Counted from the stretch's first letter, positions 6,329 to 15,440 are shown. The stretch is DNA of 15,440 nucleotides from Hormoscilla sp. (GCA_051439505.1 JBFRWI010000003.1:1-15440), one strand, 5' to 3'. The notes: generated from the sequence alone by a model not told the origin. Program-made: numbers and translations.

Positions 6329-6418
6329 AAATATTCGCTGTTAGCCCGCCGGGGGTTGAAAATATTCGCTGTTAGCCCGCCGGGGGTTGAAAATATTCGC
6401 TGTTAGCCCGCCGGGGGT
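6329..6418 (+). repeat. 31-bp tandem direct repeat, ~3 copies
   Basis: AAATATTCGCTGTTAGCCCGCCGGGGGTTGA at 6329, 6360 and 6391 (last copy matches for 28 bp); no spacers. Confidence 0.95.
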
Positions 6419-6460
6419 ATCCCACCCCCGGCTAATAGCTAAAGTCGGTTAAAACCGACT
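6397..6460 (+). repeat. Two-hairpin REP-like dispersed repeat, copy 1
   Basis: GCCGGGGG-TATCCCA-CCCCCGGC, TAATAGCTAA, AGTCGGTT-AA-AACCGACT. Confidence 0.85.
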
Positions 6461-7142: not shown

Positions 7143-7256
7143 AATGTAGCCTCTGGGTGGAATGGCAATTTTTAATGGGTGCATTTTTAATTGGGATTGC
7201 TTATGCTTTATACCATTTTGCCAAAAAATGCTAAAATTACTTGAAGTTAGATTATT

Positions 7257-7320
7257 AGTCGGTTTCAACCGACAAGAGGCTGTTAGCCGGGGGTTTGAAC
7301 CCCCGGCGGGCTGACAGCGA
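7257..7320 (-). repeat. Two-hairpin REP-like dispersed repeat, copy 2 (inverted relative to copy 1)
   Basis: Reverse complement reads TCGCTGTCAGCCCGCCGGGGGTTCAAACCCCCGGCTAACAGCCTCTTGTCGGTTGAAACCGACT. Confidence 0.85.
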
Positions 7321-7416
7321 AGTGAGAAAACTTTCGCGGAAGAAGTATGGGAACATTTGCCGACATTTAGTATTATACTTGAGGTGTTCTCAGGCTGGGC
7401 AAGAGACTAGCACTCG

Positions 7417-10298: not shown

Positions 10299-10354
10299 TG
10301 GCCCGCCCGGGGTTCAAACCCCGGGCTAATAGCTCAAGTGGGTTAAAACCCACT
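10299..10354 (+). repeat. Two-hairpin REP-like dispersed repeat, copy 3
   Basis: GCCCGGGG-TTCAAA-CCCCGGGC, TAATAGCTCA, AGTGGGTT-AA-AACCCACT. Confidence 0.85.
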
Positions 10355-10523: not shown

Positions 10524-12008
10524 ATGACTAATGCTGCAGCTGTAACAACTGAGTACGAAGCCATTATTGGTTTGGAAACTCACTGTCAACTGAGTACCAA
10601 AACGAAAATTTTCTCCAATTCTTCGACGGAATTTGGTGGTACTCCTAACACCAATATCGACCCCATATGTATGGGAATGCCCGGAGTCCTTCCCGTCCTC
10701 AACGAAAAGGTTCTGGAATATGCGGTGAAGGCGGGTTTGGCCCTCAATTGCGAGATTGCTAAATACAGCAAGTTCGATCGCAAGCAATATTTCTATCCAG
10801 ATCTGCCGAAGAATTACCAGATTTCTCAGTACGATCTCCCGATCGCGGAACATGGTTGGCTGGAAATTGAACTGATGGATGCTGATGGCAACCCCGTGCG
10901 GAAAAAGATTGGCATTACTCGCCTCCATATGGAGGAAGATGCCGGAAAGTTGGTCCATGGCGGCAGCGATCGCCTCTCGGGTTCGACCTATTCTCTGGTA
11001 GACTATAACCGCGCGGGAGTGGCCCTGGTAGAAATAGTCTCGGAACCGGATATGCGATCGGGACAGGAAGCTGCTGAGTACGCCCAAGAACTGCGTCGGA
11101 TTATGCGTTACCTGGGGGTTAGCGATGGTAACATGCAAGAAGGTTCCCTCCGCTGCGATGTGAATATCTCCGTTCGTCCTGTGGGTCAAGAGGAATTTGG
11201 CACGAAGGTGGAAATTAAAAATATGAACTCCTTTAATGCCATCGGACGGGCGATCGACTATGAAATTGATCGGCAAATTGCGGCGGTGGAAGCAGGGGAG
11301 AAGATCGTCCAAGAAACGCGCCTCTGGGAAGAAGGTTCTCAACGGACTATTAGCATGCGCAGCAAGGAAGGTTCTAGCGACTATCGCTACTTCCCGGAAC
11401 CGGATTTACCGCCGATTGAAGTATCGAAAGAACAGCGGGAAACATGGAAATCTCAATTGCCGGAACTGCCCGCCCAAAAGCGCGATCGCTATGAAAGTAA
11501 ACTGGAACTTTCTGCTTACGACGCCCGGGTGCTGACGGACGATCGGGCGGTGGCGGAATATTTTGAAGCTGCCGTCGCGGCAAATGCCAATCCCAAGCAA
11601 GCAGCAAACTGGGTGATGGGGGACATTGCGGCCTATTTGAATGCGAACAAACTCGGCATTACCGACATTGCCATTACCCCCGAGGCCCTAGCGGAGATGG
11701 TAAACTTGATTGAAGATAAAACCATCAGCAGCAAAATTGCCAAAGACATCTTGCCCGAGCTATTATCAAAAGGAGGGTCGCCGAAGGAGTTGGTGGAAAG
11801 TAAGGGTTTAATCCAAATTTCCGACCAAAGCGCTCTGGAAGCTATAATAGATGAAGTGATTGCCGCTCATCCCAAGGAACTGGAACAGTATCGCAAGGGT
11901 AAAACTAAGCTGCAAGGTTTCTTTGTCGGACAGGTGATGAAGAAAACTAGCGGTCGCGCCGATCCCAAGTTGACAAATCAGTTGTTGGGTAAAAAACTTA
12001 AGGGTTAG
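10524..12008 (+). CDS. gatB: Asp-tRNA(Asn)/Glu-tRNA(Gln) amidotransferase subunit B
   Basis: [85 protein letters not shown]. Confidence 0.98.
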
Positions 12009-12019
12009 AATAAGGTAAC

Positions 12020-12133
12020 CTGGTTCCTAGGCTCAGCCTGGGAACCGTCAACAGAGGCTCTGCCTCCTGTTGGTTAATGACACGGGAGGCAGAGCCTCAA
12101 AAACAGCATTGGCAGGTTCTACCTGCCAACGAG
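12020..12133. repeat. Three-hairpin palindromic element downstream of gatB (possible terminator/RNA stabiliser)
   Basis: GGTTCCTAGGC-TCA-GCCTGGGAACC (12022-46); GAGGCTCTGCCTCCTGT...ACGGGAGGCAGAGCCTC (12054-98); TTGGCAGGT-TCT-ACCTGCCAA (12109-29). Confidence 0.85.
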
Positions 12134-12230
12134 ATCTATCCTACTATTCTACCTGGGATACTTCTGGTGAATGAGTTCGATCGCCTGCCACGGGTGCCGA
12201 TAATTCTTCGCCGAGAAGGGACTTTCCCCA

Positions 12231-12260
12231 TTTTGAATTCTGAATTTTGAATTTTGAATT
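12231..12260. repeat. Heptamer tandem repeat (TTTTGAA)x4, STRR-like
   Basis: TTTTGAA TTCTGAA TTTTGAA TTTTGAA TT. Confidence 0.85.
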
Positions 12261-12264
12261 GCTT

Positions 12265-12477
12265 AGTGGTACATTCATCCTTCAGACAGCTTGCGATTTG
12301 CCTGAAGGCATTCAAGTTGAACTTTTTGTAAAATTACCTCAAGTCATTCCCCCCAAGATCGCCGATCTTGGTGCTAGACAGGATTTTTTAAGGCGACTTG
12401 TCGAACGAATGCAACAAAACCCTATTCCCTCAAATGCTCCTCTGTTTACGCGAGATATGTTCCATGAACGCAGTTGA
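12265..12477 (+). pseudogene. Probably 5'-truncated antitoxin (DUF104/AF2212-like)
   Basis: SGTFIL...DLPEGIQVELFV pattern and FTRDMFHER C-terminus typical of antitoxins upstream of PIN genes. The heptamer repeat sits where the start codon and RBS should be. Confidence 0.6.
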
Positions 12478-12544
12478 CACGAACATTTGAATTGACGTTA
12501 ATGATTCGCGAGATCCTGGCAAGCAGGCAATTGCAGCTTCTTTT
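12464..12544 (+). pseudogene. PIN-domain toxin remnant
   Basis: ATG 12464 reads MNAVDTNI*IDVNDSRDPGKQAIAASF: PIN N-terminal xDTN motif, in-frame TGA at 12488-12490, homology lost at about 12545. Confidence 0.8.
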
Positions 12545-12568
12545 GCACGCGAGCGTGTTATACTAGGC
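12545..12568 (+). repeat. Isolated 3' end of the long recombination-site-like element, with core GTTATAC (12557-12563)
   Basis: GCACGCGAGCGTGTTATACTAGGC matches 13617-13640 at 22/24. Confidence 0.75.
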
Positions 12569-12634
12569 ATAGCCTCTGAAACGGACGAGCAGCGGTGTGG
12601 ATTAAAATAGAAAAAGTTACTGCCCATTTCCTGC

Positions 12635-13102
12635 ATGAGTGAAACTGTCTACATTGAAACGAGTATCTTAGGCTATCTTACTGCTCGATCCAGCAGAGAT
12701 CTTGTCGTGGCTGCCAATATAGAGATTACGAGGGAGTGGTGGGATACGCGCCGTGGTTACTTCCAACTCTACTCTTCGCAAGCCGTCGTCAAAGAAACGT
12801 CACAAGGAGATGCTCAAATAGCATCTCAACGACTCGCAATCATTCGCGATCTGGCGTTACTCGATTTGAACCAATCTGTGATCGATCTAGCAGAGCAGTT
12901 GCTGGGACGCAGTAACCTGCCTGCCAAAGCTGATGTTGATGCTATTCATATCGCAGCCGCAACTGTTCATGGCATGGATTACCTGCTGACGTGGAACTGC
13001 AAGCATATTGCTAATGCTCAAATTCAGATAAAATTTGCAGAAATAAGTCTTGATTTTGTACCCCATACGAACTGCTTGGAGGTTAATTATGTATCCCGAT
13101 GA
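12635..13102 (+). CDS. PIN-domain (VapC-like) toxin with a frameshifted C-terminus
   Basis: VYIETSILGYLTAR...REWW...DAIHIAAATVHGMDYLLTWNCKHIANA. The family-type ending CTPYELLGG* lies in another frame (13057-13086). Confidence 0.85.
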   Translation: MSETVYIETSILGYLTARSSRDLVVAANIEITREWWDTRRGYFQLYSSQAVVKETSQGDAQIASQRLAIIRDLALLDLNQSVIDLAEQLLGRSNLPAKADVDAIHIAAATVHGMDYLLTWNCKHIANAQIQIKFAEISLDFVPHTNCLEVNYVSR

Positions 13103-13298
13103 GATTGTCGAAGAAATTCACAGAATCCGTGAAGAGTACTCTCGTTCATTCAATCACGATCTAAAAGCCATATTTGCTGATTTACAAAAGCAGCAAGCGG
13201 CAAGCGGCAAGGAAGTTGTGAATTTATCTCGAAAGCCCGGTAGAACAAGACGTTGGAGCGGACGGGCGCGAGATATTGGTGGAGATGCTCCCGAATAA
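13089..13298 (+). CDS. Small protein downstream of the PIN gene (putative antitoxin)
   Basis: MYPDEIVEEIHRIREEYSRSFNHDLKAIFADL; GGAGG RBS at 13078-13082; the 3' end reads into the attC-like site. Confidence 0.8.
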   Translation: MYPDEIVEEIHRIREEYSRSFNHDLKAIFADLQKQQAASGKEVVNLSRKPGRTRRWSGRARDIGGDAPE

Positions 13299-13326
13299 TC
13301 TCCGCCGCTCAATTTAGCCGTTGTTA
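13240..13326 (+). mobile_element. attC-like integron cassette recombination site
   Basis: R'' GTAGAAC (13240-46), 5 nt, left arm GTTGGAGCGGACGG, right arm CCGCCGCTCAAT (pairs with two extrahelical bases), 6 nt, GTT at 13320. Confidence 0.75.
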
Positions 13327-13333
13327 TGATGCC

Positions 13334-13640
13334 GAATTAACTCTGTAAAAACTTAAGGCCGATCGCCCCCACTGTCTCGGCATATTCTTCATGCAGACCG
13401 GTGGTTACCGTACAGTTCTGTACGGGTTGCATCCCTTGCGCCACCACGGGATATCGATATATGAGAACAGAAAGGGGTCGTCGGGGCGATCGGTACAAGA
13501 TCGGCAGGTAGGCAGAAAGAGGCACAGCCGTGCGAAATTTCAAAGAGCTGAATCTCTTTATGGGAGAGGCTTTCAGGCAAGTTAACAAAAATTAACTTGC
13601 CTTATAGGCTACCTTGGCACGGGAGCGTGTTATGCTAGGC
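13334..13640 (+). repeat. Long non-coding repeated element ending in GTTATGC (attI-like or atypical att site); left boundary uncertain
   Basis: 13425-13512 is homologous to 14784-14881, and 13617-13640 to 12545-12568. Internal inverted repeats at 13408-13425, 13548-13576 and 13575-13602. Confidence 0.6.
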
Positions 13641-13741
13641 TCAGGAAATAGGTCCAGAGCGATTTGGACCACCTCCGGCGGCGGCATACTGTTCGCCCAC
13701 AAGATATCCACCGGCAATAGGCTTGGGCAGCTATTTGCCGT

Positions 13742-13805
13742 GCCGAACCATTCAGTGGAGGCGGATGTGGGGTATAAAGCACCGCTAGCATCAAGGTCGT
13801 TATTG
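13742..13805 (+). mobile_element. Short degenerate attC-like site
   Basis: GCCGAAC-CATTC-AGTGGAGGCGGATGT...GCACCGC...GTT at 13799, directly upstream of the methyltransferase. Confidence 0.5.
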
Positions 13806-13844
13806 ACAACAAATGAAATTCAATTAGGCAAATCAGAGAAGAAA

Positions 13845-14708
13845 ATGAAACTAAGCAAATCTGAGTATAACAAATCGAGGGATTTCTATGATGAGATTTT
13901 TAATGAATTCAAAATGGATTTTTCTCTCTATGAGGATTTGGTTGAAATATTGAAGCCGAAATCTGTATTAGAGCTGGGTTGCGGAATGGGTCGATTGTTC
14001 GGGATATTTATGAAAGAAGCAAAGGAGATAACCGGGATTGATTTAAGTGATGAAATGATATCTCAAGGAAGGAAGTATTATGCCGAACATAAGGTAGAGA
14101 ACGCAATTGTTGAATTTGTGAATACAGATATGTGTTCATTCCAACTCAATAAAAAATATGATTTAATTGTGTTTGCCTTGTCCGTATTAAAACATTTAAG
14201 TACGGATAAAGATCGACTTACCGCTTTGAAAAATGCCAAAGAACATTTAAGTGAAGAAGGATTTATTGTTATTGACCAAGCACCTTTGCTGTACGCTTCG
14301 AGACCCACGGATTGGATTGATGCCAAAAACTCACTGGTAGCGGACTGGTTGCCAGCTACCAGTGTTCTTGACGGTTACCAATGGAAGAAATCTCTAGAAG
14401 GGAACATAGACATTCTGCAATGGAGGTATAAGAATTCAGAAGAAATCCAATTTGAGGCTCAGTTTACAACTTACCGATATGATATCGATCGACTGATTGA
14501 GCATCTCAGTCAACTGGAGATGAGTCACGAGCAGATGCTCACGGAATGGGGTGTTAATGGTTTAGGCAATAAAGGAAAACGATTTATTGGTTTAGCTTGT
14601 CATCCAGGGAAAAAATACAGCCCGAAACGCGAACTCATAGAGAAGGTGAAAAAGCGTAATGAAAGATTATGGTCCGATTTCGATCTGTATCTTGAAGACA
14701 AAAAGTAA
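13845..14708 (+). CDS. Class I SAM-dependent methyltransferase
   Basis: VLELGCGMGR motif I, TGIDLSDEMI, TDMCSFQLNKKYDLIV, HLSEEGFIVID. Start ATG 13845 (MKLSKSEY). Visibly more AT-rich than the core genes. Confidence 0.9.
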   Translation: MKLSKSEYNKSRDFYDEIFNEFKMDFSLYEDLVEILKPKSVLELGCGMGRLFGIFMKEAKEITGIDLSDEMISQGRKYYAEHKVENAIVEFVNTDMCSFQLNKKYDLIVFALSVLKHLSTDKDRLTALKNAKEHLSEEGFIVIDQAPLLYASRPTDWIDAKNSLVADWLPATSVLDGYQWKKSLEGNIDILQWRYKNSEEIQFEAQFTTYRYDIDRLIEHLSQLEMSHEQMLTEWGVNGLGNKGKRFIGLACHPGKKYSPKRELIEKVKKRNERLWSDFDLYLEDKK

Positions 14709-14723
14709 ATGAAAATGTAAAGA

Positions 14724-14885
14724 TGCCAACATCCTGAATACCTTCTCAGGTTTCCCGTGACTTGATGGCGATCGCCAGCTACTGGTTGCCATCCCTGGCG
14801 CCACCACACCGATACAGACTGGATATCGATATATGAAAACAGAAAGGGGGATGGGCGATCGGGACAAGATAGGTAGGTAGGTAAC
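14724..14885 (+). repeat. Second, 3'-truncated copy of the long element
   Basis: GGATATCGATATATGAAAACAGAAAGGGG (14821-49) matches 13449-77 at 28/29 with flanking homology. TGCCAAC at 14724-30 lies just after the methyltransferase stop. Confidence 0.75.
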
Positions 14886-14911
14886 TGACGAGGAAAAATA
14901 TGGTCAAGATT

Positions 14912-14940
14912 TGCTATACTCAAGCAGAGGGTCTAGGAGG
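14912..14940 (+). promoter_or_regulatory. Extended -10 element and RBS of the UPF0175/DUF3368 operon
   Basis: TGCTATACT at 14912-14920 and AGGAGG at 14935-14940. Confidence 0.5.
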
Positions 14941-14947
14941 TTATGCC

Positions 14948-15211
14948 ATGAAAATCGCGATTGAAATACCTGACAAAATCGCCAAGTATATGGAAGAGAA
15001 ATGGGGTAATCTGGAACAGCGGGTGTTGGAAATTACCGCTGCCGAAGCCTATCGAGATGAGGCAATTACTCATGCTGAGGTGGGGCGGATACTTGGCTTG
15101 GGCCGCTATGAAGTTGATGGGTTTCTCAAGAAAGAAGGCGCTTATCTAAACTACACCCTAGCAGATCTAGAGCAAGATGTCCAGAATATTCGCAAAGTGA
15201 GGGGAAAATGA
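14948..15211 (+). CDS. UPF0175 family protein (putative antitoxin)
   Basis: MKIAIEIPD...EAYRDEAITHAEVGRILGLGRYEVDGFLKKEGAYLNYTLADLEQD; RBS before ATG 14948. Confidence 0.88.
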   Translation: MKIAIEIPDKIAKYMEEKWGNLEQRVLEITAAEAYRDEAITHAEVGRILGLGRYEVDGFLKKEGAYLNYTLADLEQDVQNIRKVRGK

Positions 15212-15440
15212 CTGTTATTTCTAATACGTCACCTTTGCGTTATTTGATACTGATTGACCAATTTGAACTATTGCCACAATTATTCGATCGCGTGTTCGTT
15301 CCCCAAGCAGTGTGCGATGAACTGGGGGCTTCCGTTGCCCCAACAATAGTGAGAAACTGGATTTCCAGCCCGCCAGACTGGCTGGAAATCCAATCGGTAT
15401 CTACGCCCCCGGACGTCCCACTGCAACGATTGGGTGCTGG
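15208..15440 (+). CDS. DUF3368 family PIN-domain toxin, truncated by the window edge
   Basis: ATGA overlap with UPF0175; reads MTVISNTSPLRYLILIDQFELLPQLFDRVFVPQAVCDEL...PPDWLEI. Confidence 0.88.
   Translation, partial: MTVISNTSPLRYLILIDQFELLPQLFDRVFVPQAVCDELGASVAPTIVRNWISSPPDWLEIQSVSTPPDVPLQRLGA

Follow-up and report, generated by a model that had tools for sequence, protein, structure and literature searches.

Results

Gene content of the locus behind gatB

We analysed a stretch of 15,440 nucleotides (the window), which is the entire contig C3 of the Hormoscilla sp. genome G000 (6.47 Mb, 93% complete), and compared it with four congeners, G001 to G004, the five genus genomes being 93–97% complete. 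The anchor gene, gatB (10524–12008, +), carries the Pfam domains GatB_N and GatB_Yqey and has orthologs that are 96% identical. Locus maps place a variable locus downstream of gatB in all five genomes, arranged differently in every one; the congeners' loci are rearranged and hold a long repeated element in multiple copies, and many of the genes at the locus are broken. An initial annotation had described the series behind gatB as co-oriented, and every ORF in it does lie on the + strand.

The series opens with the remnant of an AF2212-like antitoxin gene (12264–12477, +), whose 5′ end has been replaced; from 12264 onwards the sequence matches more complete copies of G002 and G003 at 96%, and the ortholog matches AF2212-like weakly (E 0.003). 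Overlapping it is the 5′ stub of a VapC/PIN gene (12464–12543, +), which has an early stop and is cut at 12543. G003 has the whole gene with its own attC site and G002 a frameshifted copy with attC; the G003 VapC protein matches PIN (E 1.5e-5), and the attC behind the gene scores 57–58 bits in both genomes. Fused to the stub is a 26-bp fragment of the repeated element (12544–12569, +), followed by the ORF of a PIN-like toxin (12635–13102, +), which near 13054 has 22 nt less than its counterpart in run X5, and by the ORF of a small partner gene (13089–13298, +), which runs into an attC site and in other genera, too, is linked with the PIN gene. The PIN label is carried by the G002 ortholog, which matches PIN weakly (E 0.0035), the window protein itself having no Pfam or NCBIfam match; the partner matches no Pfam or NCBIfam family and, from its position, would be the antitoxin.

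Further on lies a class I SAM-dependent methyltransferase gene (13848–14708, +; Pfam Methyltransf_25), present at this locus in three of the five genomes and AT-rich as first described (GC 37.7%, versus 49.5% for gatB). It has no downstream attC of its own here, and none of six homologous loci elsewhere has an attC match. The series ends with a UPF0175 gene, followed by the beginning of a DUF3368-type PIN gene that the contig end cuts (together 14948–15440, +). UPF0175 was confirmed by Pfam; the cut ORF itself has no Pfam match, but the 3′ part of its ortholog matches DUF3368. Because the contig end falls inside this last gene, the array may continue beyond the window. An Rfam scan of 12000–15440 gave chance-level matches only.

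Other repeats and insertions were seen around these genes. The gatB 3′ end with its downstream repeat (window 11833–12134) recurs, 78–82% alike, in G001, G002 and G004 (L032, L034 and L037), where the diverged copy sits 12–14 kb further on, so that the variable locus is flanked on both sides. Just 3′ of gatB, G002 has a group II intron domain match without a long ORF (L032:16575–16651). The G003 DUF3368-type gene carries an insertion with inverted ends at a TA (window 15241–15242; end of L035, start of L036), which splits the contig. Upstream in the window, an 88-nt direct repeat (2131–2218 and 2856–2943, 93%) surrounds a DUF433/DUF5615 pair on the − strand and has no notable attC match, and a dispersed palindromic repeat (6329–6460, 7255–7321 and 10301–10354) flanks a Uma2 gene in inverted order, with three tandem 31-nt copies at 6329.

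One genuine attC site and one doubtful one

The attC sites were scored with a home-made model, built from intI-bearing cyanobacterial loci (22 of 351 phylum genomes matched TIGR02249). Eleven flanking stretches gave 54 heuristic candidates, from which 23 were chosen by eye; these training sites come from seven genomes, 14 of them from one, and include a single short-type site, which makes the model weak on short attCs. With this model rather than that of IntegronFinder, the gatB locus has one attC in the window, two each in G002 and G003, and none in G001 and G004.

The two places at which attC-like sites had been annotated fared differently. The site at 13240–13326 (attC1, +; crossover G at 13320), annotated as 13240–13322, is a true attC by model score (44.2 bits, E 1e-9 in the window) and by L-box pairing (7 of 7), while its fold taken alone is no better than that of shuffles (z −1.39). 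DNA homology to attC1 and the PIN module stops at 13319–13322 in three other genera (G015, G029 and G033) with differing flanks, which places the 3′ boundary of the PIN-pair cassette at the attC1 crossover in unrelated contexts. Homologous attC sites were matched by the model in L011, L013, L014 and L016, and of the 13 PIN loci examined, 11 of them scanned for attC, four have an attC match. By sequence comparison, attC1 forms the end of a PIN-partner module that is widespread.

The place at 13742–13805 (attC2, +), annotated as 13742–13801, retains AAC and GTT cores between which the arms are broken; it gave no model match at E ≤ 5 with filters off, its L-box pairs at three of seven positions, and its fold has z +0.27. 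Among 301 genomes the attC2 sequence was found only in G000, G001 and G002, and no intact relative of it was present. Homology to the metagenome locus L193, a distant methyltransferase homologue, starts at 13800, directly after the G of attC2, in AT-rich sequence where the match is weak. We regard attC2 as, at best, a decayed attC-like sequence.

A composite repeated unit

The long element is, by its sequence, a composite of about 90 bp of obscure origin, a truncated MITE, integrase-side attI repeats lacking the crossover end, and a piece of about 140 bp. The full unit, of about 480 bp, occurs in tandem in G001 to G004 and consists of block A1, the truncated MITE, up to three attI-type repeats and block C; the whole unit was found only in Hormoscilla among 301 genomes of the order. 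In the window the part map runs from blocks A0 and A1 (13330–13505, +), both of obscure origin, through the MITE-like repeat, which lacks its right end (13506–13620, +), and the left part of the first, integrase-side attI repeat (13621–13649, +) to an internally deleted block C (13654–13737, +). The subsequent attI repeats, retained in most congener copies, are deleted here. Block C is what had been set apart as a piece of about 110 bp, and is perhaps the remnant of a first cassette. The 26-bp fragment fused to the VapC stub comprises the MITE tail and the left half of the first attI repeat, and holds a possible extended −10 box.

A further copy of the element had been annotated at 14724–14885. 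Within it, 14780–14881 (+) is 75% alike over 105 nt with 13421–13512, but 14724–14779 aligns poorly, and this partial second copy consists of A1 and the MITE left end only, with neither MITE body nor GTT motif. In G001 a second place, behind carB-like sequence (L038; G001:C2:2867000–2870000), has two more copies together with the 3′ half of the DUF3368-type gene; G001 has 7% contamination, and strain mixing may therefore account for them.

A profile of the MITE built from seven other copies matches 13531–13596 (E 1.3e-7) and 48 genome places. Seven of nine right-end matches have a left end upstream, against none in the reversed control, and the family is dispersed and non-coding with inverted ends, as MITEs are; its TA ends suggest that it may be related to IS630. 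Blocks C and A1 gave no convincing tblastx match in G000 and no plasmid match, and among the 301 genomes they occur outside Hormoscilla as short pieces only; the unit motif has no exact match in metagenome contigs. A CRISPR leader was considered for the middle of the element and rejected, the matching genome copies being MITE-like with no arrays after them; a dif/Xer-type site was likewise dropped, as no match to the consensus was visible by eye.

Twelve of the 19 unit copies are complete enough for comparison. They are 74–87% alike within genomes, 40% of their informative site pairs are incompatible, and incompatibility is lower between neighbouring sites than in permuted data (p 0.004). On this sequence evidence the copies are old and mosaic, although the mosaic signal could also come from gene conversion with the genome-wide MITE.

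The GTT motifs are probably not cassette boundaries

The motifs GTTATAC at 12557 and GTTATGC at 13629 do lie in a direct repeat of 33 nt, 85% alike, and these GTTRRRY-like motifs resemble IntI binding cores, as had been pointed out. A further proposal was that the long element bounds cassettes as a recombination site of a second kind. With only the upstream half of the motif as the query, 18 copies were found in the five genomes (1, 5, 7, 3 and 2), of which 16 were assigned to the gatB-downstream locus, three of them on a short G003 contig by way of the gene that it continues, and two lie at the second G001 place. In all 18 the same element persists past the GTT, which argues that these GTTs are not crossovers.

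Gene-content differences between the loci likewise have boundaries that do not fall at the GTTs. The 88 alignment ends between the window and relatives' loci, a set that is not independent, include one that falls no more than 3 nt from a named GTT; it is an alignment artefact, the element continuing there. The VapC-stub fusion is 13 nt before the GTT at 12557, and the unit match extends 12 nt past that GTT. A contig of run X5 (a run that looks identical to X6; X1 is possibly the source of the assembly) lacks 13481–14852, that is, the MITE, block C, attC2 and the methyltransferase, and its joint, 13480/14853, lies inside a block shared by two copies. The proposal of a second recombination site is thus contradicted both by the continuing copies and by a joint within the shared repeat.

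The motif at 12557 has a further property. GTTATAC exactly complements the inverse core of attC1 in its G002, G003 and X5 form, as would be expected of the start of the PIN cassette, yet it belongs to the repeat unit: the same core is present in three of the 18 unit copies, and the unit match there runs 5 nt beyond it. In addition, a perfect GTTAGGC core arises at one G002 junction, within the methyltransferase. The best explanation of the GTTs at 12557 and 13629 is that they are left half-sites of an accessory attI repeat.

attI-type repeats

The part of the unit that starts at the GTT motif aligns with DNA lying between intI and the crossover in other cyanobacteria. The intI-adjacent DNA of G029 is 82% identical over 55 nt and 75% over 68 nt; local alignment scores are 94 for G029 and 91.5 for G296, against shuffle maxima of 70 and 64.5, and the region of G113 scores no better than shuffles. 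Among 21 intI-adjacent regions, ten contain two to five repeats of about 30 bp, mostly about 40 bp apart, with a GTT 33–35 nt after the start of the last repeat; one more has a single repeat and the other ten have none. A matrix trained on 12 of the 21, including all ten that show the layout, finds an attI-type repeat at 22–30 bits in 12 of the 19 unit copies, and none at 20 bits in the reversed genome. When the two most similar training loci are omitted, three tested repeats score 24, 28 and 16 bits. The 13 repeats carried by these 12 unit copies all lack a GTT at offset 31–37.

The attI assignment is made by position next to intI and through paralogous congener copies, the scoring repeats of the window itself being deleted. 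Taken through those copies, the homology with repeats between intI and the crossover identifies these sequences as probable accessory attI repeats, at which IntI binding is predicted. Alignments of the unit with intact or stub platforms begin on their intI-start side; in an alignment with another cyanobacterial stretch, the GTT motif is placed on that side, more than 100 nt from the expected crossover. That stretch is one of nine from other cyanobacteria recovered with a repeat-family pattern in 185,579 genomes, which returned 21 stretches in all (six Hormoscilla, nine other cyanobacterial, one from another bacterium and five judged to be chance). The nine contain intI fragments in five cases and no whole intI within the fetched flank; seven keep the terminal GTT, judged by eye. 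An intI remnant inside the unit itself was considered and set aside, the best tblastn match with cyanobacterial IntI in these loci having E 0.016.

Orphan clusters of attI-type repeats are common in filamentous cyanobacteria (L021, L026, L104:2150–2360, L109, L118 and L156–L175), often with an intI 5′ stub of 20–50 codons. In G296 a second whole attI region lies 17 kb from that genome's own integron and faces it.

Integrase search and a second array

No integrase had been visible near the array, and a genome search bore this out, with TIGR02249 above its cut-off in none of the five genus genomes (93–97% complete). PF00589 matched nothing in G000, G001, G002 and G004 and two generic tyrosine recombinases in G003. 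The same four genomes (93–96% complete) gave no XerC/XerD-like gene, PF00589 being positive in 14 of 14 control genomes. The gene recA is present in all five. With cyanobacterial IntI proteins as tblastn queries, G000 yielded a single intI stub of 72 bp, on contig C174.

This stub belongs to a second integrase-less array, behind thrS (L177; G000:C174:19200–37800), which has three attC matches of 53–62 bits and two attI copies that keep the crossover. Each attI copy is preceded by a repeated end of a membrane-protein gene and by a short 5′ stub of intI, and is joined to the next block at or next to the crossover. A pattern search for this type of terminal attI was negative in all five genomes searched (G001–G004 and G008). 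The same sequence follows an attI crossover in L171 and an attC crossover at G000:C174:30600, which points to IntI having been active in this family in the past.

Discussion

Comparison with known systems

The picture of an integron-derived, TA-rich locus with no integrase is supported by these results. With respect to a complete integron, the window has at least one attC, and it has neither an intI near the array nor an attI with a crossover. CALINs, in the part of PMC4889954 drawn on here (Cury et al. 2016), resemble the locus in having attC sites with TA and methylase genes in one orientation and no intI nearby, as is the case here; that part lists loss of intI among CALIN origins, records cyanobacterial integrons, and states that attI is unknown for most integrons, for which reason attI is not searched for. 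In the Hormoscilla locus, by contrast, attI remnants are present and multiplied. By attC number, the locus is a CALIN only in G002 and G003 (two attC each, home-made model); the window, with one, stops at a contig end.

The delta-attI cassettes of class 1 and 2 integrons, as covered in a portion of PMC12901181, likewise hold attI-derived sequence within the array beside attC; those sites keep the crossover end (14–244 nt) and recombine with IntI1, whereas the unit keeps the opposite end, has neither crossover nor integrase, and has no role as a cassette boundary. Sedentary integrons with a deleted or truncated intI, for example in Xanthomonas (parts of 10.1101/2025.06.18.660453), share a fixed position behind a housekeeping gene and integrase loss within a lineage, but those arrays are described there as stable afterwards, whereas the Hormoscilla locus is different in each of the five genomes and repeats break it up. 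The CALIN of Shewanella prophage M16-3 (PMC9892861, in part) also has an attI without intI heading its cassettes, and differs in having one whole attI and an intact intI within the same element. Accessory repeats vary among attI sites, as one section of PMC3146285 notes. Among titles and abstract openings in the open-licence literature, we found no description of a cyanobacterial attI layout or of multiple attI. The gatB-downstream locus works like a decayed sedentary integron and is neither a complete integron nor a delta-attI cassette site.

Proposed history and alternatives

We consider it probable, from the sequence comparisons, that the locus is the relic of an integron that lost intI and the attI crossover, amplified the resulting unit, and had its copies reshuffled by RecA and short-patch deletion. 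A chromosomal integron downstream of gatB would have captured cassettes through IntI, including the two TA pairs that still have attC sites. The integrase gene would then have been lost, a MITE would have taken the place of its 5′ end, and attI would have lost its crossover end by deletion; the composition and the missing crossover are read directly from the unit, and the order of events is our suggestion. The unit of about 480 bp, with its obscure blocks, MITE and integrase-side attI repeats, is duplicated in tandem and across the locus. The joints and the mosaicism suggest that modules between copies were gained, lost and reordered by homologous recombination between the copies, and that deletions at 1–3 nt of microhomology also reshape the locus. 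IntI may have made some past junctions, given the complementary core at 12557, the G002 core, the start of L193 homology at 13800 and the C174 copies that kept their crossover; the unit would not thereby become a cassette boundary.

That the long element is a second site-specific recombination site beside attC, with crossover at the GTT, draws on the resemblance of all its core variants (GTTATAC, GTTATGC, GTTAGAC and GTTATCC) to IntI cores, on the complementarity of 12557 to the ancestral attC1 inverse core, and on the recombination of attI-derived sites within class 1 and 2 arrays reported in that portion of PMC12901181. We think it highly improbable, since the sequence to either side of the GTT is shared by all 18 copies, none of the 88 alignment ends is a genuine one at a named GTT, four of the five genomes have no recombinase, and the delta-attI sites published there keep the crossover end that these copies lack. 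Rather unlikely, too, is that IntI itself made the duplications, by recombining attI with a secondary GWT site and reinserting the product before the integrase was lost, or through an integrase supplied in trans, with later decay erasing the crossovers. IntI does use GWT secondary sites, as a part of 10.1101/2022.09.11.507474 reports, two attI copies on C174 still have their crossover and meet a repeated gene end at or beside it, and that array has the 72-bp intI stub; but the same part of that source finds attI by genome-site recombination not to reach a significant rate, every C174 copy carries the same intI 5′ stub, and every gatB copy has both the MITE fusion and the crossover loss, which must therefore predate the amplification.

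There may also never have been an integron platform, the locus being an island behind gatB, rich in repeats and TA modules, where attC sites are merely passengers of those modules. The PIN module does occur with a solo attC in unrelated contexts of other genera, just one attC of the window passes, none was matched at the locus in G001 and G004, and the diverged gatB 3′ end is repeated 12–14 kb away in three genomes; we nevertheless find this reading improbable, because attI-type repeats are present at this locus, oriented as the attC sites are, and are rare elsewhere. Retention of the unit as a cassette promoter (through the extended −10 box TG-N-TAnnCT) and as homology, with RecA swapping of expressed TA and restriction modules standing in for the integrase, is compatible with the integrase-less relic and adds selection to it. 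The TAnnCT hexamer is in all 19 of the listed copies, preceded by TG in 18; the 26-bp fragment before the PIN gene is just this box; different copies precede different genes (the PIN pair, XisH/XisI, an antitoxin, a C5 methylase and AIPR); and copies persisted through species divergence. The same letters are, however, expected of an IntI half-site, the copies share descent, a sigma-70 scan that requires a −35 box found no site here, and many genes of the locus are broken, so that we hold selection for the promoter to be somewhat unlikely.

Implications

The locus requires no new recombination model. If the integrase-less relic is the right reading, an integron that has lost its integrase would be left not as a frozen array but as one that is reshuffled by way of its own duplicated docking region. 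Tentatively, an attI fragment with a cassette promoter may have become a repeated spacer after the loss of all tyrosine recombinases, RecA replacing the integrase for expressed TA and restriction modules; we see this as possible rather than likely, and, if true, cyanobacterial integrons would have duplicated orphan attI blocks as a late stage in general. In filamentous cyanobacteria the attI layout, with a repeat period of about 40 bp and the crossover 33–35 nt after the start of the last repeat, finds orphan platforms that attC-based tools miss.
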